Below are positions 13,651 through 33,277 of a stretch of DNA of 64,000 nt, piece after piece. The DNA is from an uncultured Acidimicrobiaceae bacterium (GTDB lineage Bacteria; Actinomycetota; Acidimicrobiia; Acidimicrobiales; RAAP-2), in assembly GCA_963754445.1 (NCBI GenBank), contig CAVWFT010000003.1, positions 76,348-140,347 of the forward strand, given 5' to 3'. Both the position numbers and the translations under genes were made by a program. The stretch's first letter is position 1. Every line of letters begins with the position of its first letter. A model generated the notes under the pieces. It saw only the letters and a list, made by a program, of their open reading frames with translations, did no database searches and was not told the origin of the DNA.

Positions 13651-13695
13651 CGTCCCCGGAAGCGGTCGGGACCACGTGGACCACTTCCAGGGACG
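13651..13695 (-). terminator. Stem-loop after fliC, a candidate terminator or attenuator
   Basis: 12-bp stem CGUCCCUGGAAG/CUUCCGGGGACG. It is complete (one G-U pair) only on the minus-strand RNA. No U-tract follows. Confidence 0.4.
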
Positions 13696-13709
13696 ACGGA
13701 CGCAAACCT

Positions 13710-17058: not shown

Positions 17059-17188
17059 GGTCGTAGGGTCGACCAAGCCGCGACAGGCGGAGCGATCTCT
17101 TCGTGTCGTCGGCGAGCGACGGAGTGGCGCGCACACCGAGCTGCGCAAGCAGCATTCGTCGGGGTCACGAACCGGGCGCTGGCCCAGG

Positions 17189-19564
17189 TCAGACCGGCGA
17201 AGGGCTCCCCACCAGTCCCTGCAGCCGCCCGGCGACCACTGCCAAGACGTGATTCCAGGTGAATTCAGCCAGGATGCGTCGACGGCCCGCCTCCCCCATC
17301 CCGGAGACGACCGAGGGGTCGTCGACGACGCGGCGCATGATCCCCGCCAGGGCGTCGGCGTTCGGCTCGGCCCACCAGTACCCGATCGAAGAGGGGCCGA
17401 TCTCGGTCATCTCGACCGGTGTCTGCGCGGAGGGGACGAAGAGCGCGTTCTCCGCAGTGCAGAAATCGAGACAGGCGCCGTAGTCGGTGACGATCACCGG
17501 AAGCCCCGAGGCCATCGCCTCGGCGACGGGAAGACCGAATCCCTCGCCGCGGTACGGGTGCACCAGGACATCGCAACTGCGGTAGAGCGCGGCCATGTCG
17601 GCTTCCGTCAGGTCGTCGTCGATGAGTTCGACCTCGGCCGAGAGAGGATCGAGCGCCACGGCTCGGAGCTGGTCGTCGATGGTCGAGCCGCGGTACACGT
17701 GGCCCGATCCGAAGGCCTTGACCACGAGACAGACGTCGTCATCGGGCCCGAACGACTCGAGGTACGAGCGCAGGAGCACATCGACACCCTTGCGGGCGAT
17801 CGTGCCTCCGACGAAGAGGAATTTCGTGGCTTTCGCGGTCCGGAGCTGGTACCCGGGTCCGGTCGGGCTGAACCGATCGGTATCCACACCGTGGGGGACA
17901 ACCGCAACCGATGACTCGGGCACGCCGCTGCGGACGTAGCAATCCCTGACCCAGGACGTCGGGCACCAGACCTCGGCGACGTTGCGGCGGATCTGCGGGA
18001 TCCAGGCCGACGGGATGCCCCCGAATTCCCAGGGCTGGATGAGCACGAGCGGGGCGGATCCGGCCGACGAGAGGTCGGGTGGCCACCGATGGCGGACGAC
18101 GAGGTCGATGTCGTTCCGGTCGCGGTGAGGCGGGAATGACCGCCCGATCCGTTCGACCTCGATCGCCGAATCGACGAAGAACGGCGGCGCCTCCGACGTC
18201 ACCGGTGTGACGGCGGCCAAGCCGGCGACGGCCAGACGGCCGGCCAATGCCCGGTTCACGTGGGCCAGGCTGTGGTGCGCGTAGAAGTCCCCCTCCCAGC
18301 GGATACTGGGTACGGACGGAGATGTCATCGCCGGACCGGACGAATCGAGCGCCCGCCCGCGCTCCCCGTTGCCCACCCCCGCGGACCCAGATCCCGATAT
18401 CGCACCCGGGGATGCGGGCGAGAACACGCCCGTACGGCGCATCCCGGTCCTCTCGGCCAGGGCGTCGATGCGTTCCGCCAGGACGCCCGAGACCTGTTGC
18501 CACTGCCACTTGCGTTCGACGTCGGCCCTCGCCCGGGCGCCGATGCGTGTGCGGTATTCGGCGTCGGCCTCCAGCCGCGTCATGACTTCCACAAGATGTT
18601 CGACGGACGGCTCGGCCCACGAGTGACCCCTGTAGAAGGCGAACTCGGCCCGGCCGTCGATGGCGCGCAGGCCCTCGATATCGAGCAGGACGCTGTTCTC
18701 GTCGTCCATGAACTCGAGGTTCCCGCTCCAGCGGGTGGCCACTGTCGGCAGGCGACAGGCCATCGCCTCGATCATCGGCCGGCCCCACCCCTCACCTCGC
18801 GAGGCGCTCACATACACGTCGGCGGCAGCGTAGAGACGAGGCAGGTCGGTCAGGCTCAACGGGCGGTCGAGCACGATGATCGGAGCCACATCGCGCCGGC
18901 TCTTTCCGATCGACTCCAAGAATGCGTCGATGCGTTCGTTCGGATCGAAGCAGGAGCCCTCGTGAGGTGCTGTGCGCAACACCAACGAAGCATCGTCGTC
19001 GGGCCCGAAGGCTGCCGCCCAGGCCGAGAGGATGACGTCCCATCCCTTGCGGTACGACCACTCGAAGATGGAGAGGAACACGGTGCCGCGCACGCCGTGG
19101 ACGCGCAGGGGACGCAGCCCGGGCCTGAAGAGCGACCCGTCAACACCGCCGGGCACCACCTCGACGGGAACGCTGACGCCAGCCCTGGTGAAGGTCTCCC
19201 GGTTGAAGGAGGCGGGCACCCAGACCTCGTCCATCTGGTTGAGGCGGCCCACCCAATCGGCCGGTATCGAGTCCGTCTCGAACATCGTGCGCATGACATT
19301 TGCCTGCGCGCCCTGGACGGGCGTGGCGCAGTAACCCGGCATGTGTTGCACCGAGACGAACGGGTGGCCGAGAGGGGTCTGGACCGCCTGGTGCAAGGAG
19401 AGCAGGCGACTCGGGGCCGAGGCGGCGAGCTGATCGATGAACTCGGGCACTTCTTGTCCCCAGGCGCGTGCCGTGACGGGATGACCCCGCTTCTGCATGG
19501 CGGTGATCATCGCCCGGCCTTCGTCCCCGTAACCGCTGAAGTTGAAGATCGGGCACTGCCACAT
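17189..19564 (-). CDS. Tandem family-1/4 glycosyltransferase
   Basis: Two GT1 C-terminal signatures (EGWGRPMIEAMACRLP and EGFGLPVAEAMASGLP). Start set at ATG 19564; the upstream 113 codons of the ORF look non-coding. Confidence 0.8.
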   Translation of the reverse strand: MWQCPIFNFSGYGDEGRAMITAMQKRGHPVTARAWGQEVPEFIDQLAASAPSRLLSLHQAVQTPLGHPFVSVQHMPGYCATPVQGAQANVMRTMFETDSIPADWVGRLNQMDEVWVPASFNRETFTRAGVSVPVEVVPGGVDGSLFRPGLRPLRVHGVRGTVFLSIFEWSYRKGWDVILSAWAAAFGPDDDASLVLRTAPHEGSCFDPNERIDAFLESIGKSRRDVAPIIVLDRPLSLTDLPRLYAAADVYVSASRGEGWGRPMIEAMACRLPTVATRWSGNLEFMDDENSVLLDIEGLRAIDGRAEFAFYRGHSWAEPSVEHLVEVMTRLEADAEYRTRIGARARADVERKWQWQQVSGVLAERIDALAERTGMRRTGVFSPASPGAISGSGSAGVGNGERGRALDSSGPAMTSPSVPSIRWEGDFYAHHSLAHVNRALAGRLAVAGLAAVTPVTSEAPPFFVDSAIEVERIGRSFPPHRDRNDIDLVVRHRWPPDLSSAGSAPLVLIQPWEFGGIPSAWIPQIRRNVAEVWCPTSWVRDCYVRSGVPESSVAVVPHGVDTDRFSPTGPGYQLRTAKATKFLFVGGTIARKGVDVLLRSYLESFGPDDDVCLVVKAFGSGHVYRGSTIDDQLRAVALDPLSAEVELIDDDLTEADMAALYRSCDVLVHPYRGEGFGLPVAEAMASGLPVIVTDYGACLDFCTAENALFVPSAQTPVEMTEIGPSSIGYWWAEPNADALAGIMRRVVDDPSVVSGMGEAGRRRILAEFTWNHVLAVVAGRLQGLVGSPSPV

Positions 19565-19830
19565 CAGGGAGATCGGTGCCGCCGCGGTGGCGTGGTCCGA
19601 CGTGCGCCCACCTGCTCCGGGAGCGTGGCGATGGCCCGCGGCGCGCGGCGCGGTGACGCGACCCCCGCCGCCACGAGAGCGACTGCCGGACTTTCGACCT
19701 CCCCGCTGGGGCACGACGTTGATGGTCGTCGCGAAACCGTTCGAAATTGAGCGTTTCTTGATCAAACGACGCGGGCGGACAGGTGCGCCGACGGCTGAGC
19801 GATGCGACCAGAGTTGGTCGGGCGGCACCT

Positions 19831-19890
19831 GTGGGTCGTGCGGTGGGTCGTGCGGTGGTTCGTGCGGTGGTTCGTGCGGTTGGTCGGGCG
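19831..19890. repeat. 12-nt tandem repeat, about 5 copies of gtgg(g/t)tcgtgcg
   Basis: Units at 19831, 19843, 19855 and 19867, plus a degenerate unit at 19879 that is identical to 19813..19824. Confidence 0.85.
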
Positions 19891-19903
19891 GTCCGTCGAT
19901 CAT

Positions 19904-19940
19904 GTCCGCCGGTGACGTCCGCCGGTGACGTCCGCCGGCC
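19904..19940. repeat. 13-nt tandem repeat gtccgccggtgac, about 2.6 copies
   Basis: Read directly. Confidence 0.8.
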
Positions 19941-19975
19941 GGGAATTCCGTGTCGACTCAGGTCAGTGCCACATC

Positions 19976-20003
19976 TCAAGAATCCCTGAAGGTGGGCCGA
20001 TGT
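19976..20003 (+). promoter_or_regulatory. Sigma-28-type promoter candidate for the FkbH-like gene: TCAA-N16-GCCGATGT
   Basis: Plus strand reads TCAAGAATCCCTGAAGGTGGGCCGATGT. Confidence 0.45.
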
Positions 20004-20081
20004 CTGGTTTGAGGTGTTGCGGCCGCCCGAGCGGCAGGGCACGAGAGCAGTTGGCTCTCTCCCACCGAAGGAGGACCCCCG

Positions 20082-22367
20082 TTGCAGTACTTCGTGGCAT
20101 TCCACCAGCTCGATGTGCTCGACGGCATGGAAGGCCGGTGCGTCACGGGGCTGTACCCGCACCTGCGCCTGGTCTCCCTCCTGCCCGCCGACGTCACCGT
20201 GCACGCCGCAGCGAAGCTGCCCCCGCATCTGCGCCAACGCATCATCACGGACCCCGCACCCGAGCTCGTGCGCACCGGCCTGCACGGAGTGCTCAGCGCC
20301 GACAGCATCGAGACCCGCCAGATCCTGACCACCGTCCCGCCCGACGTCATCTTCGACTGGGGCGGCCTCAACGTGGCCTACGAGCGTTGGCTGCACACCG
20401 TCTACCTCCCACACTGCGCCACCACCGCCCTGTACAGCCCCGAGAACCTCTACCCGTCGGACTGGACGACCCAGCCGATGACGATCGACATCGTGGGCAG
20501 TTGCGAGGCCTACTTCATGGAACAGCAGGTGCAGGCGGTCGCCACCCAGCTGGGGGTGCAGATCAGCTCGTACCACACGCTGCAGAACCATCCCGTCGCC
20601 TCGGCGTCCGCCGGGGGGCCCGCCACCGCTCGACTCGTCGTGCCGCCGCTGCGCTACATGCATCCCGACACCCTGGACGACATCGTCGTGCACGCCAACC
20701 ACCTGCGACTCTTCGAGGAGTCGAGGTCCAGGTTGGTGGCGTACCTCGATTCGATCCTGGTCGGCCACGACGACACGCCACAGTTCGTCACCGGGTTCAT
20801 CGAGCCGTGCGTGAATCCGCTGGGTGTTTCCTTCCACGGCGCCGACCTGTCCAACCTCAAATACTTCGTGCGCTGCCTCAACGACGTGATCATCGAGTGG
20901 TGCGACGGTCACGCACAGACCTGGTACATCGACGCCAACGAGACCGCAGCGATGATCGGCAAGAATTACATCGACGACGGCCCCATCGCCCACTACGCGC
21001 ACCGCATCCCGTTCGACCCCTACGACGACTGGGTGGAGCGGGATGATCCGGTGGCCACGCAGCCGCTCCTGCGCAGCTTCGAGATCCGATCGTCCAACTT
21101 CTACGCCGCCGTCATCCGCGAGGTCTGCACCCGCCTGGCCATGCTCACAGGTCGTGACCAGGTCAAGGCGGTGATCGTCGACCTGGACAACACGCTCTGG
21201 CGCGGTCTCGCTTCGGACCAGGCCGTGGGATCGTGGAACGGGCGACCCCAGGGCATCGTGGAGGCGCTCAAGGTGCTCAAGAAGCGCGGTGTCCTCCTTG
21301 CCGTGGCGAGCAAGAACGACGAGGCCTACATCCGGACCCACTGGAACCGCATCCTGCATGAGTACGCGGAGGTGCCGCTGGGCTGCGCGTTGAGCCTGGA
21401 CGACTTCGACAGCGTCCGCATCGACTTCCGCCCGAAGTCGGTCACGGTGGGCGAGATCCTGGCCGAGCTGAACATCCACGCCGACGCCACCGTGTTCGTC
21501 GACGACAACCCTCTCGAGCGCGAGGAGGTCCAGGCCGCCTTTCCCGCCATGCGGGTCCTCGGCGCCGAGCTCAACTACGTGCGCCGCGAGCTCCTGTTCA
21601 GCCCCTTCACCCAGCACGCGCGACTCACTGCGGAGGACGCCACTCGTTCGGCGACCGTGCGCCAGCAGGCCTTGCTCGGCGAGCATCGCGCAGCCGGGAC
21701 GGCTGACGACTTCTTGTCCTCGCTCGGGCTGACCTGCCGGGTGACCGAAGTCGACGATCCCGCCGCGGCCGAGGCGCAACGCGCCGTGCAGCTGATCAAC
21801 AAGACGAACCAGTGGAACCTCAACGGCGGACGTCTCGGCGAGGGCGACCTGCGGCGGGCGCTGGCCGGGGGCCAACGGCTCTTCGTGGCCCACACCAAGG
21901 ACCGCTCGAACGACTACGGGCTGGTGGCGGCCGCGCTGATCGACGAGTCGGCCGAGCGGATCACGCACATGGTGGTCAGCTGCCGGGTGATCGGGATGGG
22001 CATCGACGCAGCACTGGCCCATGCCGTGCTCAGCCGGTTCGGGCCGGCACTGGCCTTCGCCTACGCCGACAGCGGGCGCAACATGGCCGTGCGCAGCTTC
22101 CTGCAGGGCCACCTGCGCCCGAACGGATCGCCCACCGACGGGGGCGGCGGCGACGATGGGGCCGGCGGCAACGGCCTCGAGGCGGGCCCGGTCGTGCTCG
22201 GCGGCGTGGACGCGCCCACGCACATCGAACTGAGCGTCGAGGCACCACGTTCGGCGCCGGAGACGGCACCGTCGGCGCGGCCGGCACCGTCGGGGGGGCC
22301 GGTCGCCGCAGCCGGCGCCGGCGTCCACGGCCGGACCGGGGACGACGCGCGTCCCGTCGCCGGCTAA
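20082..22367 (+). CDS. FkbH-like protein: unknown N-domain, HAD-IIIC phosphatase-like domain and GNAT-like C-domain
   Basis: HAD motif VIVDLDNTLW...ASKN...VDDNP. TTG start behind GAAGGAGG. Confidence 0.8.
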   Translation: MQYFVAFHQLDVLDGMEGRCVTGLYPHLRLVSLLPADVTVHAAAKLPPHLRQRIITDPAPELVRTGLHGVLSADSIETRQILTTVPPDVIFDWGGLNVAYERWLHTVYLPHCATTALYSPENLYPSDWTTQPMTIDIVGSCEAYFMEQQVQAVATQLGVQISSYHTLQNHPVASASAGGPATARLVVPPLRYMHPDTLDDIVVHANHLRLFEESRSRLVAYLDSILVGHDDTPQFVTGFIEPCVNPLGVSFHGADLSNLKYFVRCLNDVIIEWCDGHAQTWYIDANETAAMIGKNYIDDGPIAHYAHRIPFDPYDDWVERDDPVATQPLLRSFEIRSSNFYAAVIREVCTRLAMLTGRDQVKAVIVDLDNTLWRGLASDQAVGSWNGRPQGIVEALKVLKKRGVLLAVASKNDEAYIRTHWNRILHEYAEVPLGCALSLDDFDSVRIDFRPKSVTVGEILAELNIHADATVFVDDNPLEREEVQAAFPAMRVLGAELNYVRRELLFSPFTQHARLTAEDATRSATVRQQALLGEHRAAGTADDFLSSLGLTCRVTEVDDPAAAEAQRAVQLINKTNQWNLNGGRLGEGDLRRALAGGQRLFVAHTKDRSNDYGLVAAALIDESAERITHMVVSCRVIGMGIDAALAHAVLSRFGPALAFAYADSGRNMAVRSFLQGHLRPNGSPTDGGGGDDGAGGNGLEAGPVVLGGVDAPTHIELSVEAPRSAPETAPSARPAPSGGPVAAAGAGVHGRTGDDARPVAG

Positions 22368-22392
22368 AGCCCACCTCGCCCCGCGCCGATAT
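22365..22392 (+). promoter_or_regulatory. Sigma-28-type promoter candidate for flhA: TAAA-N16-GCCGATAT
   Basis: Plus strand reads TAAAGCCCACCTCGCCCCGCGCCGATAT. The TAAA overlaps the stop codon of the FkbH-like gene. Confidence 0.6.
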
Positions 22393-22426
22393 TCCGTTCG
22401 GAGGACGAGCAGCCACCGGACGGCGC

Positions 22427-22472
22427 TCACACCTCGGCCAGGGACCGGCCGACCCCTTTTGGTGAGGTGTGA
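22427..22472 (+). promoter_or_regulatory. flhA leader hairpin that pairs with the SD and start codon, with an inner GGA-loop hairpin
   Basis: UCACACCUC (22427..22435) is perfectly complementary to GAGGUGUGA (22464..22472). Inner hairpin is CGGCC-AGGGACC-GGCCG. Confidence 0.5.
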
Positions 22473-24511
22473 TGACGCGCAATCGGATCGGTTTGATCGG
22501 CATCCCGGCCGGTGTGGTCGGGATCGTCGTCATGCTGATCGTGCCGATGCCGCCGTACCTGCTGGACGTCCTCATCAGCCTGAACATCTCGGCCGCCGTG
22601 ATCGTGATGCTCATGAGCATGCACGTCAGGAAGCCGCTCGACTTCTCGGCCTTCCCCGCCCTCCTCCTCGTGGCCACCATGTTCCGGCTGGCCCTCAACG
22701 TCAGCGCCACCCGCCTCGTCCTCGAGCACGGCTACGCCGGCGCGGTCATCGAGTCGTTCGGTTCCTTCGTCGTGGGCGGCTCCCTCATCGTCGGGCTCGT
22801 CGTCTTCCTGATCCTGATCGTCATCCAGTTCGTCGTCGTGACCGCCGGTGCGGGTCGCGTGGCCGAGGTCGCCGCTCGATTCACCCTCGACGGCATGCCC
22901 GGCAAGCAGATGGCCATCGACGCCGATCTCAACTCGGGCTCCATCAACGAGCAGGAGGCCAAGCGCCGACGGGCGGAGATCTCGAACGAAGCCGACTTCT
23001 ACGGCGCCATGGACGGTGCGTCCAAGTTCGTCCGTGGTGACGCCATCGCGGCCGTCATCATCACCCTGATCAATCTGATCGGCGGGTTCGCTGTCGGGAT
23101 CCTCCAACAGCACCTCTCCCCGAGCGACGCCGTACACACGTACTCGCTCCTCAGCGTGGGTGACGGACTCGTCTCGCAGATCCCGGCCCTGCTCCTGTCG
23201 ATCTCGACCGGCATCATGGTGACCCGGGCCGCCACCGAGGACGACTTCGGGACCGACGTACTCACGCAGCTGCGCCGCCAGCACAACGCGGTGCGGGTGG
23301 CCGGCGTCGTCATGATCGCCCTGGCCCTCATCCCCGGGCTGCCCCACATCGCCTTCCTCATCGTGGGCGGCCTCCTCATGCTGGCCGCCAGCCGCTTCCG
23401 GAGGACTACCAACGCCCCGGCTCCGGCCGAGGAGCTCGTGGAGGCGGCGCCCGAGGTCGACTCCCCCGCCGCGCTGGCCGGCGAGGTCCGCATCGACCCG
23501 CTCGAGCTCGAACTGGCCCTCGACCTCATCGACCTCGTCGGTGACGGCGGCGATCTCCTCGACCGGGTCAAGGGTCTGCGGCGCAAGGTGGCCGGCGACC
23601 TCGGGCTGATCGTGCCGCCGGTGCGCACCCGCGACAACCTCGACCTGGCCCAGGGGACCTACACGATTCTGTTGCACGGCGTCGAGGCCGGGCGGGGCAT
23701 GGCGCCTCCCGGTCGCCTGCTCTGCATCGGTGACGGCATCGATGCCCTGCCGGGCGAGTCGACCGTCGAGCCCGTCTTCGGCCTCGGGGCCAAGTGGGTG
23801 CCGACGGAGTTGCGCCAGCAGGCGCTCATGGCGGGGGCCACCGTCGTCGACCGCTCGTCGGTCATCACGACGCACCTGGGCGAGGTGATCTCGGAGAACG
23901 CCGGACGCCTGCTCTCGACCCAGCAGCTGCGCACGCTGCTCGATCTGGTCAAAGAGCGCGAGCCGGTCGTGATGGAGGAGATGGCCGCGGCCAACCTGGC
24001 CCTGAGCGAGCTCCAGCGCGTCCTGTGCGAGCTTCTCAACGAGGGTGTGCCGATCCGCGACCTGGCCCGCATCACCGAGGCCGTCAGCGAGCGGGCCCGG
24101 GTCAGCAAGGACCCCGACGCGCTGCTCGAGGCGGCGCGCAACGCATTGGGGCCGGCCATCACGGCGCTCTACGCCGAGGACGGGACGCTGTACGTCCTGA
24201 CCATCGAGGCCATGGACGAGCGCATGCTCCTCGACTCGGTGACCGCCGGGGAGTACGGCCTGATGCTGGCCATCGACCCGAGCATGGCCGAGCGCCTGGC
24301 CCAACAGGCCGGCTTCCTGTGCGAGCAGGCCGAGCAGGCCGGCCACCAGCCGGTGCTGCTGTGCTCGTCACGCCTGCGACCGGCGGTCCAGCGGCTGCTC
24401 CACGGCCCGGTGCCGCGCCTGCACGTGATCGGCGTCAACGAAGTCTCTTCCAACGTGAAACTCGAACGACTGGGGACGGTGCAACTTGCCCACGAAATCG
24501 CTGCTGCTTGA
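22469..24511 (+). CDS. flhA: Flagellar export apparatus protein FlhA
   Basis: Canonical FlhA N-terminal TM region and FHIPEP motif (RFTLDGMPGKQMAIDADL). 680 aa. ATG at 22472 is an alternative start. Confidence 0.95.
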   Translation: MMTRNRIGLIGIPAGVVGIVVMLIVPMPPYLLDVLISLNISAAVIVMLMSMHVRKPLDFSAFPALLLVATMFRLALNVSATRLVLEHGYAGAVIESFGSFVVGGSLIVGLVVFLILIVIQFVVVTAGAGRVAEVAARFTLDGMPGKQMAIDADLNSGSINEQEAKRRRAEISNEADFYGAMDGASKFVRGDAIAAVIITLINLIGGFAVGILQQHLSPSDAVHTYSLLSVGDGLVSQIPALLLSISTGIMVTRAATEDDFGTDVLTQLRRQHNAVRVAGVVMIALALIPGLPHIAFLIVGGLLMLAASRFRRTTNAPAPAEELVEAAPEVDSPAALAGEVRIDPLELELALDLIDLVGDGGDLLDRVKGLRRKVAGDLGLIVPPVRTRDNLDLAQGTYTILLHGVEAGRGMAPPGRLLCIGDGIDALPGESTVEPVFGLGAKWVPTELRQQALMAGATVVDRSSVITTHLGEVISENAGRLLSTQQLRTLLDLVKEREPVVMEEMAAANLALSELQRVLCELLNEGVPIRDLARITEAVSERARVSKDPDALLEAARNALGPAITALYAEDGTLYVLTIEAMDERMLLDSVTAGEYGLMLAIDPSMAERLAQQAGFLCEQAEQAGHQPVLLCSSRLRPAVQRLLHGPVPRLHVIGVNEVSSNVKLERLGTVQLAHEIAAA

Positions 24512-26111
24512 CGGACCGGACCTCGAGGAGCTCCTGGCCCGTGCCATGAACGAAGCCGGCCCGGGTGGGCGCGTGGCCAGCGCCGACCGGGTGCGACGGG
24601 GCGGGATCGGCGGATTCTTCGCCCGCGAACACTTCGAAGTGGTGATCGAGATCGACGACTACGAGGAGACCGGCGAGACGTCGCCGGCGGCGGCGTCGTC
24701 GGCTCCGAAGCTGGTCACGTCCTCGACCGGGCGGGCCTCGTCACCTCCTGCCGGGGCCCGCAACTGGACCGACCTGGCTGAAGGGACCGAGGACTTCCTC
24801 GACATCTCCGGTACGACCTCGCCGAGCCCCGAGGCGGAACCGGCATCGCCGGCCGCCCCTGCGGCGCTCGGGTCGGAGGCCCGGATGCCCTCCACCCAGA
24901 AGGCGTCCTTCGCCGCCATGTTGACCGCGATCGCCCGGGACACGGTGGCGGACGAGGACGTGCCCGCCGCCATCGACGCCACCGGCGCCACCGTTCTGGG
25001 CGACGACCCCACGTTGGTCGTCCCGGCGGTGACCGGCCCCGCCGAGACGGCTCCCCCGGCGACGACGCGCCGCCGGCAGACCTTCACGGGGACCACCACC
25101 ACGAGCAGGAGCGGCGCCTGGATCGAGGCCATCGCCGAGGCCCGCCCCGAACCGGAGCCCGCGCCCGCTGCCGAGTCGGCGTCCGCCCACCTGCCGAACC
25201 CGGCCGGCGACGGCATCACCGCCGACGCCCAGACTCCCGTGCTGGCCGCCGAGTTGTTCGCCCACCTCGACGCGGCCGTCACGTCGACGGGCATCGCTGC
25301 GACGGGCGGCAACCGGGCTCCGATCGCGTCGTCGGTCGTGCAGCCGGCTCTGGCCTCGCTCGGCCTGCCGGCCGACCTGTTGCCGGAGGACTCGATCCTG
25401 TCCTGCCTCGAGAAACTGAGCACGACGAACGACGCCCAGACCTACGTGGAGGTCGCGCTGACCTCCGCCCTGCAGCGCCTGCCGGCGCCACCGCAACCGC
25501 CCGACCGGCCCGGCTCCGTCATGGTCATCGTGGGGGACCTCGACCGGGCGCTCGAATGCGCCGCCACGCTGGCCGATCGGGCCGGCATCGACCTCGACAC
25601 CATCGTGGTCGCGTCCCAGGCCCGCCACCGGCGCGGCGTCATGGCCCGACACCGCCTCTCGACCCCCGAAGAGGCGGCGGAGCTGGCCTCTCGCAGCCGG
25701 CGCATGCCGCACCCGGTGATCGTCGCCATGCACGCGCCGGTCTCGGCCGAACCCGACCGTTGGGCCATGCGCCTGCTCGCAGCGCTCTCCCCCGCCGCCG
25801 TGTGGGGCGTCGCCTCGGCGACGCACAAGTGCGAGGACCTGGCGGCATGGGGCGAAGGCCTCGGCGGCCTCGACGCCCTGGCGCTCGAGGATCTGGCGGC
25901 CACCACGAGCCCGGCCGACGCCCTGGCCTCCGGCATCCCCGTCGCCATCCTCGACGGGCAGCACGCCACGCCCGCGCTGTGGGCGGCGCTCATCGCCGCC
26001 CGGCTGCTGATCGCCCGGGTCGCTGCTTCCGCTGCACCGGGCCGGGCCATGACGGCGTCGGCCAACCAGGCCGGACTCGGCTCGACGGTGGGCCGGGCCG
26101 GGACGGTTTGA
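24486..26111 (+). CDS. flhF: FlhF-like protein with degenerate GTPase motifs
   Basis: FlhF-type N-terminus (DLEELLARAMNEAGPGGRV...GGIGGFFAREHFEVVIEID). C-terminal region aligns by eye to the SRP-GTPase fold but reads VMVIVGDLDRAL where the P-loop is expected. No GK[ST] anywhere in the protein. TTG start. Confidence 0.6.
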   Translation: MPTKSLLLDGPDLEELLARAMNEAGPGGRVASADRVRRGGIGGFFAREHFEVVIEIDDYEETGETSPAAASSAPKLVTSSTGRASSPPAGARNWTDLAEGTEDFLDISGTTSPSPEAEPASPAAPAALGSEARMPSTQKASFAAMLTAIARDTVADEDVPAAIDATGATVLGDDPTLVVPAVTGPAETAPPATTRRRQTFTGTTTTSRSGAWIEAIAEARPEPEPAPAAESASAHLPNPAGDGITADAQTPVLAAELFAHLDAAVTSTGIAATGGNRAPIASSVVQPALASLGLPADLLPEDSILSCLEKLSTTNDAQTYVEVALTSALQRLPAPPQPPDRPGSVMVIVGDLDRALECAATLADRAGIDLDTIVVASQARHRRGVMARHRLSTPEEAAELASRSRRMPHPVIVAMHAPVSAEPDRWAMRLLAALSPAAVWGVASATHKCEDLAAWGEGLGGLDALALEDLAATTSPADALASGIPVAILDGQHATPALWAALIAARLLIARVAASAAPGRAMTASANQAGLGSTVGRAGTV

Positions 26112-26113
26112 TC

Positions 26114-26401
26114 ATGGGTGTCCGGCGACCGGAGCTGGTCCTGGGGGCGGCCGTTCTCGTCAGCTTGCCCATGGTGCCCGACATCCTGAGCGGCGCCATC
26201 GACACGACGGCCGCGCTCGTGCGCTTCCTCGGGGCCATCCTCGTCTGCTGGGTGTTGGCCTCGATCGTGCAGTCGGTCGTGGACCGGTACGCCGATGCGG
26301 CCGCCCAGCGCGAGTACGAGGTGCAGTTGGCCCGGGCACGGGCCCAGCACGTGACGGCGTCGGACATCGAAAGTCCCGGAGGTCCCGCGGCACAGGGGTG
26401 A
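26114..26401 (+). CDS. Small membrane protein, 95 aa, two predicted TM helices
   Basis: ATG lies 3 nt after the flhF-like stop. Hydrophobic segments LVLGAAVLVSLPMV and FLGAILVCWVLASIV. Confidence 0.5.
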   Translation: MGVRRPELVLGAAVLVSLPMVPDILSGAIDTTAALVRFLGAILVCWVLASIVQSVVDRYADAAAQREYEVQLARARAQHVTASDIESPGGPAAQG

Positions 26402-26450
26402 GCTGGATCTATACTCGCCGCCTGGTACGAGATCCCCGAGGAGGCGGCCC

Positions 26451-26771
26451 GTGTTGGTCTTGAGCCGCCGGTCCCATGAAAGCATCCGGATCGGTGACAC
26501 CATCGTCATCACCGTGCTCGAGGTCCGAGGCGACCACGTGCGGCTCGGCATCGATGCTCCCCACGACGTCGAAGTCCATCGCCAAGAGGTCTACGACGCC
26601 ATCCAGACGGCGAACGTCTCGGCCGCATCGCCCGCGCCGGTGGCCGTGGCTGCCGCGGCCTCTGCACTACGTCGGGCCATGGGGAACGGGGCCGCGGGGG
26701 ATGCCGCCCCGTCGCCGGATGAGGCGGCGGGTCCTGAGGGTGCCCGCCCTCCTCGAACCGACACCGACTGA
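26451..26771 (+). CDS. csrA: Carbon storage regulator CsrA with a long Ala/Pro-rich C-terminal tail
   Basis: MLVLSRRSHESIRIGDTIVITVLEVRGDHVRLGIDAPHDVEVHRQEVY. GTG start behind GAGGAGG. Confidence 0.9.
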   Translation: MLVLSRRSHESIRIGDTIVITVLEVRGDHVRLGIDAPHDVEVHRQEVYDAIQTANVSAASPAPVAVAAAASALRRAMGNGAAGDAAPSPDEAAGPEGARPPRTDTD

Positions 26772-26790
26772 CGACCGACCGACCGACGGC

Positions 26791-26822
26791 GTGCGGTCGG
26801 ACTGACGATCTGCGGTCCGCAC
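26791..26822. terminator. Hairpin between the convergent csrA and fliW genes (possible bidirectional terminator)
   Basis: GTGCGG...CCGCAC inverted repeat. No U-tract. Confidence 0.3.
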
Positions 26823-26908
26823 GTGTCACGGCCTGAGCGGCCACGGTCGCCGGTGGCCCAGCCCGAAAGGCCCTGCCCGCCAGGCCTCCCCCGAGGACCG
26901 CTCTGGTC

Positions 26909-27403
26909 CTAGCGGGCCGCGCTCGCCACGGCCGGCGGCACCAGGGGCGCCGCCACGTCGTACTCGGAGCCGTGCATCACGACCTGGGCCGCAGCCCCGT
27001 TGCGTCGGTTGACGACGATCGGACCCAGCAGGTTCGCCGTGGGTGAACTGCCGTCCTCGGCCAGGGTCACGATCGAGAGCACGGCGGCATCCTCGGCCTG
27101 TAGCCCGAGCCGCTCCACCGTCTCCTCGTCCACCTCGACCTGGTAGTCGGGGAACAGCAGCCCCGGCGGCACGACGATGAACTCGACGCCCGGCGGTTGG
27201 GTGGCGCGCAGGCGGCAGAACGGCGCCAAGTCTCCGGGCATCGGCTCGATGACGAAGTCACGCAATTCGTCGAAGCCGGGTATCCCGACGGCGAACGTGA
27301 CCTCGAGAACCTCGTCGGTGTCGGTCGTGCGATCGAGCAGTACCGGCGTCGGGCCGGCACCAGTTTCGGCGGGAGGAGTCATGTCTTCACCGGTTCCGCT
27401 CAT
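26909..27403 (-). CDS. fliW: Flagellar assembly factor FliW (CsrA antagonist)
   Basis: FliW-like core (VTFAVGIPGFDELRDFVIEP...FIVVPPGLLFPDYQVEV...ANLLGPIVVNRRN). ATG 27403 overlaps the flgL stop as ATGA. Confidence 0.85.
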   Translation of the reverse strand: MSGTGEDMTPPAETGAGPTPVLLDRTTDTDEVLEVTFAVGIPGFDELRDFVIEPMPGDLAPFCRLRATQPPGVEFIVVPPGLLFPDYQVEVDEETVERLGLQAEDAAVLSIVTLAEDGSSPTANLLGPIVVNRRNGAAAQVVMHGSEYDVAAPLVPPAVASAAR

Positions 27404-28359
27404 CCCGCACCCAAGAACGAAACAAGCGAAGGCTGGACCAAGTTGGCCGTCGCCCACAGCGCCGTTTGGTACGAGTTCTGCTGCTGCGTGAGGTTGGTCA
27501 TCGCCTGGGGCAGGTTGACGCTCTGGATCCCCGACAACTCGGAGTTCAGAGCTGCCTGCGTGCTCGAGGCTTGCGTCGAGAGGGCCTGCATCTGCTGGTA
27601 CTGGGCCCCCAGCTGGGCCGCCTGGTTCTCGACGGTGGCAATGGCGCTGTCGAGATTCTGCAGATCGGTTCCCGACGCGGCCGCCAGCGACGTCGGCGTT
27701 CCCGTCGAGATGTCCTGCGAGATCTGCGCCAGCACACCGAGGCTGCCCGGTGTCGTGCTGAGCAGGCCGGTCGTCCCGGTCCCGAAGACCGAATCACCGG
27801 TCACCGAGATGGCGACCTGGGTCCCCGGGGCCACGGTCCGCACGGGTGCATTGCCGCCCCCGACGTACGTGCCGCTCGAGTCGAAGGCGGTGGTCACGTT
27901 GCCCGTGCCGGCGAAGATCGCCTGGCCGTTGTAGTTGGTGTTGGCCAGGTTGAGCAGGGTCTGCTGGGCCTGGCTGACCTGGTCGGCCAGGGCCGACAGC
28001 CCGGACTGGGAACCCGACAACGTGGCCGAGCTGATGGAGAGCACGTTCTGGCGCACCGACTGCAGCGTGCTGATGATCTCGTTCATGGTGGAGTTGCCCT
28101 GCTGGAGCCAACCGAGACCGTCACTCGCGTTGTTGGAGTACGAGGTCGAGCGGCTCAGCGCCGCATTGATCTGCATGATGTTGGCGGCCAGCGCCGGGTT
28201 GTCCGAGGGCTGGTTCACCACGTTGCCCGTCGACAGCTGCTCCTGGAGCTGCGCGATCGACGTCTCGTCGCTGTTCAGATTGGAGATCATCTCGTCGTTC
28301 ATGACCGACGGGGTGAGTTGGATGGACGGCATGAACGACCCACTCATCGACACGGTCAT
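27400..28359 (-). CDS. flgL: Hook-filament junction protein FlgL
   Basis: Flagellin-like N and C termini (LQEQLSTGNVVNQPSDNPALAA). Follows flgK. Confidence 0.85.
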   Translation of the reverse strand: MTVSMSGSFMPSIQLTPSVMNDEMISNLNSDETSIAQLQEQLSTGNVVNQPSDNPALAANIMQINAALSRSTSYSNNASDGLGWLQQGNSTMNEIISTLQSVRQNVLSISSATLSGSQSGLSALADQVSQAQQTLLNLANTNYNGQAIFAGTGNVTTAFDSSGTYVGGGNAPVRTVAPGTQVAISVTGDSVFGTGTTGLLSTTPGSLGVLAQISQDISTGTPTSLAAASGTDLQNLDSAIATVENQAAQLGAQYQQMQALSTQASSTQAALNSELSGIQSVNLPQAMTNLTQQQNSYQTALWATANLVQPSLVSFLGAG

Positions 28360-28456
28360 CGGATCAAACCCCCACTCCAGCCCGGGTGAACGTGCACGCG
28401 AAATCGTACTGTCCCGGTGTCATCGGTCGGCGTCATCGAAGTGCGGCAGAACTGGT

Positions 28457-29848
28457 TCATGTCGCCGCCAGCAGCGATTGGACCATTGTGTCGATGGTCG
28501 AGATGACCTTCGCCGACGCCTGATAGGCCTGCTGGAACCCGAGCATCTCCACCGTCTGTTGGTCGGTGTTGACGCCTGTCACCGACCCCAGCGAGGCCGA
28601 GAGGGACTGGCTGAGCGATGACTGGGCATTGCTCTGGGCGGTCACCGTCTGCACGTCGGAGCCCACGTTCGTGATGAAGGTCTGGTAGGCCTGGTCCGGT
28701 CCCGTCGGCGAGGTGCCGAGCTCGGCCAGGGCCGATGCGTTCGAGCCGTCGTTCGTGCCGTTGGTGGCCGACGACGCCGCCGCCAGCAGGGCCGGGTTGC
28801 CGACCACGGCCTGGTTGACCGAAATCGTGGCGGCCGCTCCCGACGAGTTCCCGATCACGAAGAGCGGCGCGCTGTTGTTCGGGCCCACCCCTGCTCCGGC
28901 TGCCACGTCGGAGTTCCCCGAGGCGTCGAAGCCCTGCCCCAGCGCACTGTTGACCGTGTTGGCCAGGTTGGTGGCCACCGTGTTCAGTTGCGACTGGTAG
29001 CCCGGGATGCTCACGTTGACCGCAGTCAAGAGGCCGGCCAGTGTGCCGTTGGACACCGGCAGTGTCACGCCGGTGTTGTTCGACACGATCGACACGGACG
29101 GCGGCGAGCCGGTCGACTTCATGGTGAGGGAGTCGGACGTGCCGCCCTGCACGAGCTGGACGCCGCCCACGTAGACGTTGAGGGAGCCGTCGGACTGCGC
29201 ATTGGTCGTGATGCCGATGTCTTGACCGAGCTGACCGACCAGGTTGTTGCGCTGGTCGATCAGCGAGTTCGGTTGCCCGCCCGAGGCCACCGTGGCCACG
29301 ATGGACTTGTTCAGCGCGGCCACCTGGCTCAGCAGGCCGTTGACCTGCGTCACGTCCGAGTTGATCTGCGTCGACGTGTTCTCGGCCGTCTGCGACAACG
29401 AAGTGGACGCCTGGTTCAGGGTGGAGACCATGTTCTCGGCTTGGTTGATGACCTCGGTCCGGGGCGCCGTCTCCGAAGGATTGGTGGCGATGGTGTCCCA
29501 GGACGACCAGAAGGTCGAGAGCTGGGCCGACAAGCCGTTCGATCCCGGCTCGGGGAAGATCGACTCGATGGACGAGAGCGTCTGTTGCAGGGCCGAACTC
29601 CCCGCCGCCGCGCCCGAGGCGGCCAGGTTGTCCGCGCTCAGCACGGCGTCTTGCGCCTGGGCGACGTTCAGCACGGTCACGCCGGCGCCGATGCCGAGGA
29701 CGTCGCCCGATGCCGTGGTGGTCAGCACCGGGGACTCGGCGGCATAGCCGGCCGTGTTCACGTTGGAGAGGTTGTCGGCGATGGTGTCCATCGCGGCTCG
29801 ATCGGCCTCGAGGCCGGACGCGGCGATGGCGAAGCCGGCGTCAGTCAC
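28457..29848 (-). CDS. flgK: Hook-filament junction protein FlgK
   Basis: N-terminal AASGLEADRAAMDTIADNLSNVNTAGY and a conserved C-terminus. GTG start behind GGGAGGGAAGGGGGA. Confidence 0.9.
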   Translation of the reverse strand: MTDAGFAIAASGLEADRAAMDTIADNLSNVNTAGYAAESPVLTTTASGDVLGIGAGVTVLNVAQAQDAVLSADNLAASGAAAGSSALQQTLSSIESIFPEPGSNGLSAQLSTFWSSWDTIATNPSETAPRTEVINQAENMVSTLNQASTSLSQTAENTSTQINSDVTQVNGLLSQVAALNKSIVATVASGGQPNSLIDQRNNLVGQLGQDIGITTNAQSDGSLNVYVGGVQLVQGGTSDSLTMKSTGSPPSVSIVSNNTGVTLPVSNGTLAGLLTAVNVSIPGYQSQLNTVATNLANTVNSALGQGFDASGNSDVAAGAGVGPNNSAPLFVIGNSSGAAATISVNQAVVGNPALLAAASSATNGTNDGSNASALAELGTSPTGPDQAYQTFITNVGSDVQTVTAQSNAQSSLSQSLSASLGSVTGVNTDQQTVEMLGFQQAYQASAKVISTIDTMVQSLLAAT

Positions 29849-29910
29849 GCGTCCCCCTTCCCTCCCGCTCGATCCCCATGTCGATCACGACGTCCACGTC
29901 CCTGCAGTCC

Positions 29911-30399
29911 CTATGCGGTGGCGTTCAACAGCTGCACGCCGGAGCGCCCCCGGCCGGCCCGTCGGCCGGACGCCGCGTAGGCCACGGCCGGCTGCACTCC
30001 GAGGTATGCCAGGGCGTCGGTCGTCGCTGCCATGCGGCGGGCCAGGATCTCGCGGTTCGCCGCCGACACCTTCTCGATCTGTTCGAAGTGGTCGAGCATG
30101 GCCTGACGGTGACCAGCCAGGATCTCGCTCCACGGCTCGGGGGCCGCGGCCACGAGCGCAGCCAAGGTCGGGGCCGAGCCCAGACCAAGTTCCACCCCCA
30201 CCGCGGCGACCGCTTCTTCCCGTTCGGTGTCGGCCAACTCCAGCATCTCCACCACTTGCTCGACCTCGGCTGTGGCGCGGTCGAGCCAACTGTGGTGCCC
30301 GGAGGCGAGGATCAGATGTTCCTCGGCCAACTTGAACCGGAGAAGCTCCAACACACAGCGCTCGCGCCACAGGCGAGTCGACAGCTCGTCGAAACCCAT
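29911..30399 (-). CDS. flgN: FlgN-family flagellar chaperone
   Basis: Helical protein of 162 aa directly upstream of flgK. FlgN-like pattern (LWRERCVLELLRFKLAEEHLIL...). Confidence 0.7.
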   Translation of the reverse strand: MGFDELSTRLWRERCVLELLRFKLAEEHLILASGHHSWLDRATAEVEQVVEMLELADTEREEAVAAVGVELGLGSAPTLAALVAAAPEPWSEILAGHRQAMLDHFEQIEKVSAANREILARRMAATTDALAYLGVQPAVAYAASGRRAGRGRSGVQLLNATA

Positions 30400-30406
30400 A
30401 TGTGCT

Positions 30407-30434
30407 GTATCGGCAGCCCCGCGGACCCGGTAAA
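30407..30434 (-). promoter_or_regulatory. Sigma-28-type -10 GCCGATAC ending 7 nt before the flgN ATG (weak -35 TTTA at N16)
   Basis: Minus strand reads TTTACCGGGTCCGCGGGGCTGCCGATACagcacatATG. Confidence 0.45.
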
Positions 30435-30579
30435 GCTTTTTTGGTCCGGCTGCCCCGCCGGGGGACCGGACCGCTCCCCGGGGTCGCCTCCGTCACCCCG
30501 CCGGGCCGCCCACCCCCGCTCCGCCGGACGATACGGGGGTTGGGGCTGCACCGGTGATGTTGTTCTCCGGCTCAGTGCC

Positions 30580-31098
30580 TCACTGGGTCACGAAGCTGGT
30601 GAGGTAGATGGCGCTGATCTGCTGCGCCCCCTCGGAGGTTCCCGCGATTTTCTGGAAAGCGGCCAGCAGGCTGGCTTGGGCCGCTTCACGCCCGGCCGGG
30701 TTGAGCAGGTCCGGCATGGTGAGTGCACCGAACACATCGATCTCGGCGTTGAGGAATTTGGGATCCTCGTCGGCCAGCGTGCTCGTCTCGGCCGGCGCCG
30801 TCTGCTGCATGGCCACGGTCACCTGCAGCAGGTGGCCGTCGGAGAGGTTGATGGTGTTCTGGGGCAGGCTGACGATCTTGCCGGCCGGCACCTTCTCTCC
30901 CGCCTTGTAGTGCGGCGGGAACAGCATCGGCTGAAGCACCATCGACCAGGCGCCGTAGCCCAGCACCAGGGCGCCCACCAAGATGATGAGCTTCTTCTTC
31001 AGCCCGCCCTTCTTCTTCTCACCGTCCTCTTCGCCTTCGCCCGCGGCCTGCGCTGCGTCCTGCTGCGCCGCGGCCTTTGGTGACATGGTGATCGTCAT
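30580..31098 (-). CDS. fliL: Flagellar basal body-associated protein FliL
   Basis: One TM segment followed by a FliL domain (IVSLPQNTINLSDGHLLQVTVAMQ). ATGA overlap with motB. Confidence 0.8.
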   Translation of the reverse strand: MTITMSPKAAAQQDAAQAAGEGEEDGEKKKGGLKKKLIILVGALVLGYGAWSMVLQPMLFPPHYKAGEKVPAGKIVSLPQNTINLSDGHLLQVTVAMQQTAPAETSTLADEDPKFLNAEIDVFGALTMPDLLNPAGREAAQASLLAAFQKIAGTSEGAQQISAIYLTSFVTQ

Positions 31099-31937
31099 GA
31101 GGTCTCACTCTCCCCTGGTGCCATGATGACGACGTCGACGCGTCGGTTTTCGGCCATGTTCTGGGGGGATGTGTTGGGGGCGGCGGGGCGAGTCTGACCG
31201 AAACCGACGACTGCGAGCCGGTCCGGATTGATGTTGTCCACGCTGGTGAGGCGCTCGACCACGTGGACCGCACGTTCGGCCGAGAGCTCCCAGTTCGAGG
31301 CGTAGGGGCCGCCGTAGATCGCCTGGTCGTCGGTGTAACCCTGGACGGCTGCGTTGTTGGTGTTCGCCGCGAGGACCGAGGCGATCGTGTCGACCACCTT
31401 GTCGCCGACCGTGCCGAGGGAGGCCGAGTCGAGCGTGTAGAAGACCTGGTCGCTGAGGATCGACACCACGAGCTCCGACGTGTTCGGCGCTGTGGGCGAG
31501 GAGGTCTGGTTGATCGAGGCGTCGGAGCCCAGACCCGCGGTGGCCAGGGCCGTCTTGAGCTCGGCCTGGATCTGGTTGAGCGACTGGCTCCCGGCGGGCA
31601 CGGCGGTGCTGGTCGACGAGGAGGAGCCACTGGCTCCCGAGGTGCTGTTCTGGCCCGACGGCTGCTGATGCAGACCCTGCACCTGCCCCGTGTGGTCGAC
31701 CAGGCTGTTGTGCTCGAGCAGGCCCGTATCGTTCTTGACCACCGTGGTGTGTCCCGAAAAGGTGTCGCGCAGGGCCTGGGCCAGCGCGGTGAACTTCTTC
31801 GTGCTGATGGTGCTCAGGGCGAAGAGCACGACGAAGAGCGCCAACAGGAGCGTGATCATGTCGGCGTAGGTGAGGAGCCAACGCTCCATACCGCCCTCCG
31901 CCTCCTCGGGCTCCTCTTGATGCTCCCGCCTGGCCAT
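31095..31937 (-). CDS. motB: Flagellar stator protein MotB
   Basis: WLLTYADMITLLLALFVVLF plug/TM region and an OmpA-like C-terminus (NRRVDVVI). Confidence 0.9.
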   Translation of the reverse strand: MARREHQEEPEEAEGGMERWLLTYADMITLLLALFVVLFALSTISTKKFTALAQALRDTFSGHTTVVKNDTGLLEHNSLVDHTGQVQGLHQQPSGQNSTSGASGSSSSTSTAVPAGSQSLNQIQAELKTALATAGLGSDASINQTSSPTAPNTSELVVSILSDQVFYTLDSASLGTVGDKVVDTIASVLAANTNNAAVQGYTDDQAIYGGPYASNWELSAERAVHVVERLTSVDNINPDRLAVVGFGQTRPAAPNTSPQNMAENRRVDVVIMAPGESETS

Positions 31938-32722
31938 CAGGCTGCTTTCTGCGGCGCGCGGACTTCGTCCCGATCCTTGGGCGGCAGGTAGGACAGCAGC
32001 TTGGACTGCACCATGCGCGGGCTGTTGCCGGCCTGGATGGCCAAGATGCCGTCCATGACGAGGCGGCGCCCCTGTGCTTCCTGTTCACTCGCTCGCTTGA
32101 GCTTGTTCGAGATCGGGAGCCAGAAGAGGTTGGCCGAGAGCACGCCCCACAGCGTGGCGGTGAACGCCTCGGCGATAGCCGGGCCGAGAACCTGCGGGTT
32201 CGACAGGTTGGCCAGCACGTGGATCAGACCGATGACCGTGCCCAAGATGCCGAGGGTGGGGGCGAAGCCGCCCATGTCGGCGAAGAATTTCACGCCCGCC
32301 TTGTGTCGCTGCTGGAGCGAGTGGATCTCGCCGTCGAGGATCTCACGGATCTCCTCGGGGTCGTTGCCATCGACGGTCATCTCGATCCCGCGCTTGAAGA
32401 AGGGATCCTCGACCTCCGCTCCGGCCTTCTCGAGGGCGAGCAAGCCCTCGCGCCGGGCCACCTCGGCCAGCTCGATCAATCGCCCGATGTCCTCGTTCAT
32501 ATCCTTGGGCGTTCCGCCGATGGCCTGCGAGAACGCTCCCTTGAAGCCCTTGACGTCGCTCTTCATGTAGCCGGCCACGGCGACGCACGTGGTGCCGCCG
32601 AAGCAGAGCAACAGGGGCGCCGGCTTGAAGAGCACCATCGGGTTGGAGCCCTCCAAGAACATGGAGACGAAGACGCAGCCAAGGGCACCGAGGATGGCGA
32701 AAAGCGTGAAGCGGTCTTTCAT
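31937..32722 (-). CDS. motA: Flagellar stator protein MotA
   Basis: Four-TM MotA/TolQ/ExbB-type protein of 261 aa. One-nt overlap with motB. Confidence 0.9.
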   Translation of the reverse strand: MKDRFTLFAILGALGCVFVSMFLEGSNPMVLFKPAPLLLCFGGTTCVAVAGYMKSDVKGFKGAFSQAIGGTPKDMNEDIGRLIELAEVARREGLLALEKAGAEVEDPFFKRGIEMTVDGNDPEEIREILDGEIHSLQQRHKAGVKFFADMGGFAPTLGILGTVIGLIHVLANLSNPQVLGPAIAEAFTATLWGVLSANLFWLPISNKLKRASEQEAQGRRLVMDGILAIQAGNSPRMVQSKLLSYLPPKDRDEVRAPQKAA

Positions 32723-32731
32723 GGCTGGGCC

Positions 32732-33187
32732 TCAGACTCCCGGGGTCCGGGCGTCCGGCGACGTCGACTCCGTGTTGGTGGTGGGATCGGAGGCGCCGGC
32801 GTCGGCTCCGTTCGCTGCAGGTTCGATCGGCGCGGCCTCGTCCCCGCGGGCAACCGCGCGCAGGGGAACCGGCCGGGTGGAGCTCATGGCGGTGTGGTCG
32901 TAGACCTCGTGGCGGTCCACGACAGGTCCTTTGGTGGATCCACGCACCACGCGCAGGCGTGATTCGCCTTCGTTGGCGTCTTCCTCGAAGACCAGACGAT
33001 GGGACAGGGCGAGCACGGAGGCCCGGAACAGGCGGATGGCGTCGATCAACTCGTCCACGGACTCGGCCACGACGAACTTGGAGCCGTCGGCCATCGTGAG
33101 CACCACGTCGGGTGTGATGTCGGCGCGCTCGATGCGATCTGGGTTGATCGCGACCTTCTCGCCGTTAAGTCTCGTAAGTGGAATCAT
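32732..33187 (-). CDS. flbD: Flagellar protein FlbD with a C-terminal extension of about 80 aa
   Basis: MIPLTRLNGEKVAINPDRIERADITPDVVLTMADGSKFVVAESVDELIDAI is the FlbD signature. Confidence 0.85.
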   Translation of the reverse strand: MIPLTRLNGEKVAINPDRIERADITPDVVLTMADGSKFVVAESVDELIDAIRLFRASVLALSHRLVFEEDANEGESRLRVVRGSTKGPVVDRHEVYDHTAMSSTRPVPLRAVARGDEAAPIEPAANGADAGASDPTTNTESTSPDARTPGV

Positions 33188-33277
33188 CGCGTCCGTGCCT
33201 GCCTGGTCATGCATCCGTGCCAACCACGGGCAAAGGACCGCTCCCTAACCGAGCGGATGGTCCCTGCCGCTGCCGTG

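Follow-up and report, generated by a model that had tools for sequence, protein, structure and literature searches.

A conserved FlhF-derived protein without GTPase motifs in the flagellar locus of an uncultured Acidimicrobiaceae bacterium

The stretch of DNA analysed here, 64,000 nucleotides of contig CAVWFT010000003.1 from an uncultured Acidimicrobiaceae bacterium (assembly GCA_963754445.1; the whole stretch is referred to below as the window), has a guanine-plus-cytosine (GC) content of 64–73% and holds a flagellar locus. The gene that follows flhA in this locus (24486–26111, + strand) is read from a TTG start, which matches the methionine of its homologues in the alignment (MPTKSLQLDGPDLE...), and encodes a protein of 541 amino acids, called X below. 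X very probably derives from FlhF, with a head of the FliG-interacting type, a disordered linker and a predicted NG fold like that of the signal recognition particle (SRP) GTPases, in which the P-loop and the other nucleotide-binding motifs have been replaced. The best explanation overall, and a probable one, is that the positional flhF orthologue of a flagellated, Acidimicrobiaceae-like actinobacterium has evolved into a pseudo-GTPase that works as a nucleotide-independent scaffold. The X family is a nucleotide-motif-free lineage of FlhF, and neither a separate new system nor an artefact.

In pseudo-GTPases, as in pseudoenzymes generally, the fold is retained, the catalytic or binding motifs are lost, and conservation of the protein fits a scaffolding role. 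X resembles them in these respects, as it keeps a GTPase fold in structure prediction, has lost the nucleotide motifs and is conserved in a large family, and it is predicted not to bind nucleotide. The initial annotation, made from the letters of the DNA, had proposed a pseudo-GTPase FlhF, and a modelled NG fold in a family that lacks the GTPase motifs throughout supports that proposal. The pair FlhF and FlhG is regarded as a conserved switch, driven by nucleotides, that fixes the site and the number of flagella (PMC12826062). Here a large and deeply conserved branch keeps the FlhF head and fold and discards the switch and apparently FlhG, and X may serve as a natural separation-of-function variant for learning which FlhF activities need guanosine triphosphate (GTP).

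Domain architecture of X

FlhF, as represented by the Shewanella putrefaciens protein (8R9R for the NG domain, 9EN1 for the FliG-interaction domain or FID), by Bacillus subtilis FlhF and by the models TIGR03499 and PF00448, consists of a FID head, a disordered B-domain linker and an NG fold, and X has the same layout. The head of X (aa 1–58; 24486–24659, +) has a beta-alpha-beta-beta topology, which in the AlphaFold model of the first 62 residues comprises strand 3–10, helix 13–27, strand 28–38 and strand 47–57, with predicted local distance difference test (pLDDT) values of 80–96 for the head. Residues G10, G25, R37, G39, G40, G43, F44 and F45 are invariant. The N-terminus had been recognised at the outset as that of an FlhF, and profiles and fold comparison agree. 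TIGR03499, the NCBIfam model of FlhF, matches aa 10–75 of X with an E-value of 1.2e-4, at 22.2 bits against a cut-off of 174.15, which does not pass the threshold of the curated family. When 29 members were scanned one by one, 21 matched TIGR03499 (best E 6.7e-11), eight matched a second FlhF model, and none matched any other family; the FlhF-model matches were always N-terminal, mostly in the first 50–100 residues. An hhalign comparison of the X family with 24 Bacillaceae FlhF sequences pairs aa 7–62 with FlhF residues 5–60 (E 6.8e-6), the head being the only part reported when full alignments are compared. The PDB match with the highest template modelling score (TM-score) to the modelled head is 9en1, the FID of S. 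putrefaciens FlhF (TMt 0.78, root-mean-square deviation 2.9 Å, probability 1.00). Since the domain is small, the Foldseek E-value of the 62-residue head alone, 0.35, is not significant, and the TM-score and probability were read together with the sequence evidence. By profile and by model, then, the head of X is homologous to the FID of FlhF, which comprises the first 44–60 amino acids of that protein and in S. putrefaciens is needed for FliG binding and also suffices for it, while FlhF's NG domain ties FliG to a landmark (PMC11236974).

Between the head and the NG-like part lies a disordered linker like the B domain of FlhF (aa 59–280; 24660–25325, +), rich in Ala, Thr, Pro and Ser. Residues 63–280 hold 22.5% Ala, 12.8% Thr, 11% Pro and 8.7% Ser and mostly have pLDDT values below 50, the exceptions being short helices at 94–100 and 142–154, so that the early description of the middle region as Pro/Ala/Thr-rich and probably disordered stands on both composition and model. 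Two helical segments of the linker are conserved and may be linear binding motifs, the first at aa 92–107 (24759–24806, +; W-x-D-L-A-x-x-T-E-D) and the second at aa 134–154 (24885–24947, +; P-S-T-x-x-x-S-F-A-x-x-L-x-x-I-A).

The C-terminal part can be assigned with confidence, on its predicted structure, to the SRP-type NG fold. In the AlphaFold model, built on a 47-sequence alignment, aa 280–520 reach pLDDT values of 86–98 and form three short helices, a series of alternating strands and helices and a long last helix. The three helices (285–291, 302–311 and 317–329, pLDDT above 90) make up a reduced N-domain-like region (aa 281–335; 25326–25490, +), to which, unlike in FlhF, the N domain has shrunk; it aligns with the FlhF N domain in the global hhalign, lies inside the Foldseek NG matches and has conserved residues at L289, G293, P295 and P333. 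The degenerate G domain that follows (aa 336–527; 25491–26066, +; pLDDT 93–98) is Rossmann-like, with alternating strands and helices and a long C-terminal helix. The top Foldseek match in the PDB is 8r9r, the GDP-bound FlhF of S. putrefaciens (E 1.1e-7, TMt 0.56, 17% identity), so that FlhF is the top structural match for both domains. A total of 112 PDB chains reach E≤1e-3, and among the 50 matches listed the other 49 are Ffh, FtsY, SRP54 or SRalpha. The SRP-type fold that the initial annotation had aligned by eye, with a structure prediction proposed as the check, is thus what AlphaFold and Foldseek return.

X shares the NG fold with Ffh/SRP54 and FtsY/SRalpha (Foldseek E 1e-7 to 1e-6, TMt about 0.5) but differs from them in lacking an M or A domain and the GTPase motifs, and in having an FlhF-specific head and a flagellar context. 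FlhF ancestry is favoured over descent from Ffh or FtsY because X retains two FlhF-type motifs, T-x-K-x-x-D and T-T-S, which are conserved both in canonical FlhF and in the X family, and it is further indicated by the FlhF-type head and the position after flhA. The first of these motifs is FlhF-specific: LVLSATAKYEDM of FlhF corresponds to WGVASATHK448CED451L of X, and the S-x-T-x-K-x-x-D of FlhF, upstream of G4, is retained as A-T-H-K448-C-E-D451. K448 and D451 show a conservation of 90% or more across the X family, while in an alignment of canonical FlhF D297 is invariant and K294 nearly so.

Replacement of the nucleotide-binding motifs

Unlike FlhF, X is without G1 to G5 (GxxGxGKT has become GDLDRAL, DTAG has become HAPV and TKxD has become LEDL), and it falls below the TIGR03499 cut-off and has no match to PF00448. 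In the hhalign register, the former G1 or P-loop is VMVIVG350-DLDRALE (25518–25556, +), with strand 1 and P-loop reading YIVLFGSTGAGKTTT in FlhF and VMVIVG350DLDRAL in X. Neither the Lys nor the Thr of GKT is present at this position, and the strand at 345–350 is followed directly by a helix at 352–366 (DSSP assignment). The DTYR of G2 pairs with QARH. At G3, FVDTAG of FlhF faces AMH416APV, and local and global hhalign agree in placing DTAG on H416-A-P-V (25731–25742, +). At G4, FTKIDETTS of FlhF faces ALEDLAATTS, and TKxD falls on L467-E-D-L (25884–25895, +). Of the last motif, GQxxP-E/D, only the G-Q remains by eye (G491-Q492), and hhalign does not pair these residues. The positions that had first been assigned by eye were VGDLDRAL for the P-loop, LEDL for TKLD and AMHAP for DTAG; the first two agree with the profile-profile register, and for the third the loss of the motif holds and its position was off by one or two residues.

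As had been reported at first sight, no GK[ST] occurs anywhere in the 541 residues of X, and G....GK[ST] is likewise absent. The degeneration extends to the relatives, for which a survey had been suggested: a Walker A motif (G....GK[ST]) is missing from every sequence checked, which comprised 47 database homologues, 82 loci from genomes and a further 143 cluster representatives (about 270 relatives). A few relatives contain stray GKT, GKS or DTAG strings, mostly in the N-terminal region or the linker; in the one inspected, P0298, the GKS is not at the P-loop position. Where relatives have TKPD strings, these fall at the retained T-x-K-x-x-D and not at G4. The initial annotation had also noted that no MinD-like flhG follows the gene. 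No deviant Walker A of the MinD/ParA kind and no SRP-type P-loop was found in any frame of the 64-kb window, and no MinD/ParA-type (FlhG) gene was found in the 82 related loci, which total 972 kb. Because the P-loop and G2 to G5 are all replaced, X in all likelihood does not bind or hydrolyse GTP and has no need of FlhG; of the GTP binding, GTP-dependent homodimerisation and hydrolysis of FlhF, its sequence predicts none.

A reading in which X is still a switch, governed through a non-canonical pocket by GTP, ATP, (p)ppGpp or c-di-GMP, and is therefore no true pseudo-GTPase, bears directly on these observations. The Rossmann-like core has stayed intact and is strongly conserved, K448, D451 and several conserved glycines and prolines could line a pocket, and B. 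subtilis Ffh with ppGpp (7o9f, 7o5b) is among the structural neighbours. On the other hand, none of the five G motifs survives, helix 1 begins where the P-loop would be and leaves no anion hole, and the K..D motif is found in canonical FlhF too, where it lies outside the G motifs. Such a ligand-controlled X is accordingly judged improbable.

Distribution, gene order and the neighbouring membrane protein

When one genome was scanned for each GTDB species, relatives of X turned up in 312 species. Among the best 80 of these, for which taxonomy was described, were Acidimicrobiia, Actinomycetes (Micromonospora, Cellulomonas, Oryzihumus, Acidothermus and Frankiales) and Nitriliruptoria (Euzebya), and those closest to the window were uncultured Acidimicrobiaceae with 56–77% identity. 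One carrier contig (L055, JAEKLB010000087.1) is labelled "Acidobacteria bacterium", while the other named carriers among the 80 are listed as actinobacterial and one just as "uncultured bacterium"; L055 is probably a mis-binned or mislabelled contig of a metagenome-assembled genome. An exhaustive profile search of 1.84 billion representatives gave 2,574 X-family clusters at 50% identity with E≤1e-3, and 887 with E≤1e-30. "Hypothetical protein" was the only name seen among the listed homologues, and no Pfam domain was found in any of them.

The best-conserved part of X is the NG-like domain, throughout which invariant or near-invariant residues occur across classes at about 30% overall identity. 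This pattern bears on the suggestion that X is a decaying relic without remaining function, which could appeal to the loss of the GTPase motifs and to the description of actinobacterial flagella as a case of degenerative evolution (PMC10746217). A relic is scarcely credible for a gene whose frame is intact, whose GC content at third codon positions, 0.91, is gene-like and similar to that of the adjoining genes, whose invariant residues and domains persist across classes at such low identity in 2,574 clusters, and whose gene order is conserved.

The gene order is that of an flhF locus. In the window, flhA, which encodes the flagellar export gate (22469–24511, +; PF00771 FHIPEP E 5.8e-242, full length) and comes first in the operon, shares 26 nt of its 3' end with X. 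Only 2 nt separate the stop of X from the start of a gene for a 95-residue hairpin membrane protein, called Y (26114–26401, +), which has a pair of hydrophobic segments and, at its C-terminus, a charged helix. The last gene of this flhA-X-Y-csrA unit is csrA (26451–26771, +; PF02599 E 6.7e-26, NF002469 E 1.5e-25), which matches the early annotation of a 95-residue protein with two transmembrane segments followed by csrA. The unit is met from the other side by the convergent set fliW-flgL-flgK-flgN-fliL-motB-motA-flbD (26909–33223, −; Pfam matches), headed by fliW, the gene for the CsrA antagonist (26909–27457, −; Pfam match). In the two most distant loci examined (L001 and L002, about 31% identity), flhA, X, a small membrane-protein open reading frame (ORF) and csrA face the same set from fliW to flbD in identical order, with an overlap of X and flhA of 29–35 nt. 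This synteny establishes X as the positional orthologue of flhF.

Y itself has no significant Pfam or NCBIfam match, and a homologous hairpin ORF lies 3' of X in most related loci, across classes, with the consensus P..sL..aL.ls.P.L...l.G..d.t.Ag.R.l.Ala..W......slv..Y. The presence of this two-segment protein downstream, with no FlhG gene nearby, sets the locus apart from that of canonical FlhF. Y is, speculatively, a candidate membrane partner of X. A parallel is offered by FipA of Vibrio, Shewanella and Pseudomonas (PMC11620751), likewise a small membrane protein linked to an FlhF protein and a potential membrane anchor; Y differs from it in having two hydrophobic segments, in its place directly after X and in showing no detected sequence similarity (no Pfam or NCBIfam match).

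The X family appears to have gone unrecognised so far in searchable sources. A 2023 survey of actinobacterial flagella, which used BLASTP, PSI-BLAST and HHpred to look for FlhF and FlhG, concluded that Acidimicrobiia, Nitriliruptoria and Actinomycetia "lack ... FlhF" (PMC10746217), and it is in precisely these classes that X occurs. Actinobacteria and a degenerate FlhF go unmentioned in a 2025 review on the diversification of FlhF and FlhG, and no description of a pseudo-GTPase form of FlhF was found in the searchable literature. The X family corrects the published absence of FlhF from Acidimicrobiia, Nitriliruptoria and Actinomycetes. It would be worth building a Pfam or NCBIfam model for it and flagging Y as a conserved candidate partner. 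PtxA/TrxA of Actinoplanes was considered as an identity for X and rejected, as ptxA (AMIS_1780) lies outside the flagellar cluster.

Proposed role of X and other features of the locus

X would be expected to lack nucleotide binding, to bind FliG, to be anchored in the membrane through Y and to act in the placement or nucleation of flagella. In the mechanism envisaged, the FID-like head would capture FliG, which in turn would hold FliF; the NG-like domain, free of nucleotide, would provide constitutive docking at the membrane or a cellular landmark, possibly by way of Y; and X with its docking partner would nucleate the assembly of the MS-ring and C-ring beside FlhA. The FliG in question would be the product of fliG in the window (7046–8050, −), which has FliG_N, FliG_M and FliG_C domains and would bind the X head by analogy with S. 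putrefaciens FlhF (PMC11236974). Without an on-off cycle of GTP and FlhG, flagellar number would have to be set by expression, for which a sigma-28-type promoter, the overlapping frames of flhA and X and the CsrA-FliW module in the flhA-X-Y-csrA unit are candidate controls. Drawn from canonical FlhF by analogy, a scaffold or nucleation mechanism of this kind has a chance that comes close to even. In its furthest form, the proposal has X and Y as a nucleotide-independent placement or nucleation system of the later-branching, monoderm Actinomycetota, in which Y or another landmark would anchor the NG-like domain, the FID would recruit FliG and FliF, a constitutive scaffold would have replaced the switch throughout the lineage, and number control would have moved to expression and CsrA-FliW. 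So complete a scheme must be called doubtful; if it were true, the GTP/ATP switch of FlhF and FlhG, viewed as the conserved heart of flagellar pattern control, would have been superseded in a whole lineage.

Work on canonical FlhF bears on this proposal from two sides. In Pseudomonas aeruginosa the B and N domains of FlhF are required for assembly (PMC12713375). In Shewanella, FliG bound by FlhF binds FliF and does not bind FliM or FliN (PMC11236974), a holdase-like behaviour which suggests that X, though FlhF-derived, might serve not in placement but as a holdase or assembly chaperone of FliG, or as a FlhA-associated factor that times the assembly of the C-ring and export gate, in either case carrying no positional information. 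The frame overlap with flhA, 26–35 nt in all three loci examined, would suit such a role, and the locus offers no identifiable landmark protein. Adjacency to flhA, however, is ancestral for flhF and therefore holds little functional information, and the NG-like domain, being the best conserved, points to a specific partner besides FliG, which makes a mere holdase or timing factor unlikely.

Several observations weigh against a pseudo-GTPase scaffold descended from FlhF. At the sequence level the NG link is weak: hhalign of the excised NG regions of X and FlhF gives an E-value of 2e-3 and a probability of 13% in local mode and 7.6e-3 and 2% in global mode, the family HMM (hidden Markov model) finds nothing among PDB sequences at E≤10, and phmmer of X against PDB sequences gives one chance match (CdtB, E 0.49). 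Sequence-to-profile searches thus miss the NG homology of X, which rests mainly on predicted structure. Loss of the motifs does not prove the loss of all ligand binding. Since the interaction of FlhF with FliG in P. aeruginosa is regulated by GTP binding (PMC12713375), FliG binding by a nucleotide-free X cannot be assumed. In the Cellulomonas loci (L076 and L080) Y is missing and csrA follows directly after X, and Y is therefore not an obligatory anchor. Finally, the negative result for FlhG covers the window and the 82 loci, and that the genome as a whole lacks a canonical flhF/flhG pair is judged from synteny and the published survey (PMC10746217).

The weak NG alignment could also be taken to mean that X is not derived from FlhF at all and is a fusion of an unrelated N-terminal domain with a SIMIBI-class or Rossmann-like domain of another kind, whose resemblance to the SRP fold is confined to the prediction. 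Consistent with this, a Pfam scan of X gave nothing at E≤1, PF00448 included, the family HMM has no match among PDB sequences, and Foldseek scores FlhF and Ffh with almost the same E-value. Yet the only models matched by the family are those of FlhF (TIGR03499 by 21 of the 29 members), the best structural match of the head is the FlhF FID, the gene occupies the flhF position right after flhA, and the hhalign alignment of the NG region, weak as it is, stays in register across the entire domain and keeps the FlhF-specific motifs. An origin outside FlhF is, on balance, highly improbable, and descent of X from FlhF is retained.

Upstream of flhA by 77 nt lies a putative promoter-like site of the sigma-28 (FliA) type, TAAA-N15-GCCGATAT (22365–22392, +), the only place in the window with GCCGATAW. 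A second sigma-28-type match (TAAA-N15/16-GCCGAT) lies at the left edge of the window (241–266, −), and TAAA-N14-16-GCCGAT is thereby found twice in the window against 0.01 matches expected by chance. Both sites were called with the general sigma-28 consensus. A scan of 21800–27600 found no sigma-70 promoter and no intrinsic terminator.

The remainder of the flagellar locus lies to the left of flhA on the − strand and comprises fliK (1472–3439), the group fliJ, fliI, fliH, fliG, fliF and fliE (4539–10044) and the group fliS, fliD and fliC (10564–14546). Between fliJ and fliK, within the flagellar operon, is a gene for a peptidoglycan hydrolase with NlpC/P60 and SLT domains (about 3436–4540, −), which could be a FlgJ-like hydrolase for rod insertion; the later actinobacterial classes have been reported to lack FlgJ (PMC10746217). 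FliD (11018–13558, −) is unusually long at 846 aa, and because its FliD_C match is spread over aa 415–832 the cap protein appears to carry a large insertion. The interval between fliC and flhA (14758–22367) holds glycosyltransferases of the types GT2+TPR (766 aa) and GT4 (904 aa) and a 761-aa ORF with a weak match to HAD hydrolases, and in distant relatives this place is taken by sugar-nucleotide genes, NeuB and DegT among them; the set is probably concerned with flagellin glycosylation. Two regulators of the LuxR family, each of about 900 aa with an N-terminal AAA_16/STAND ATPase domain, are encoded at 33437–36193 (+) and 46879–49524 (+), and one of them directly adjoins the flagellar cluster, beside flbD.

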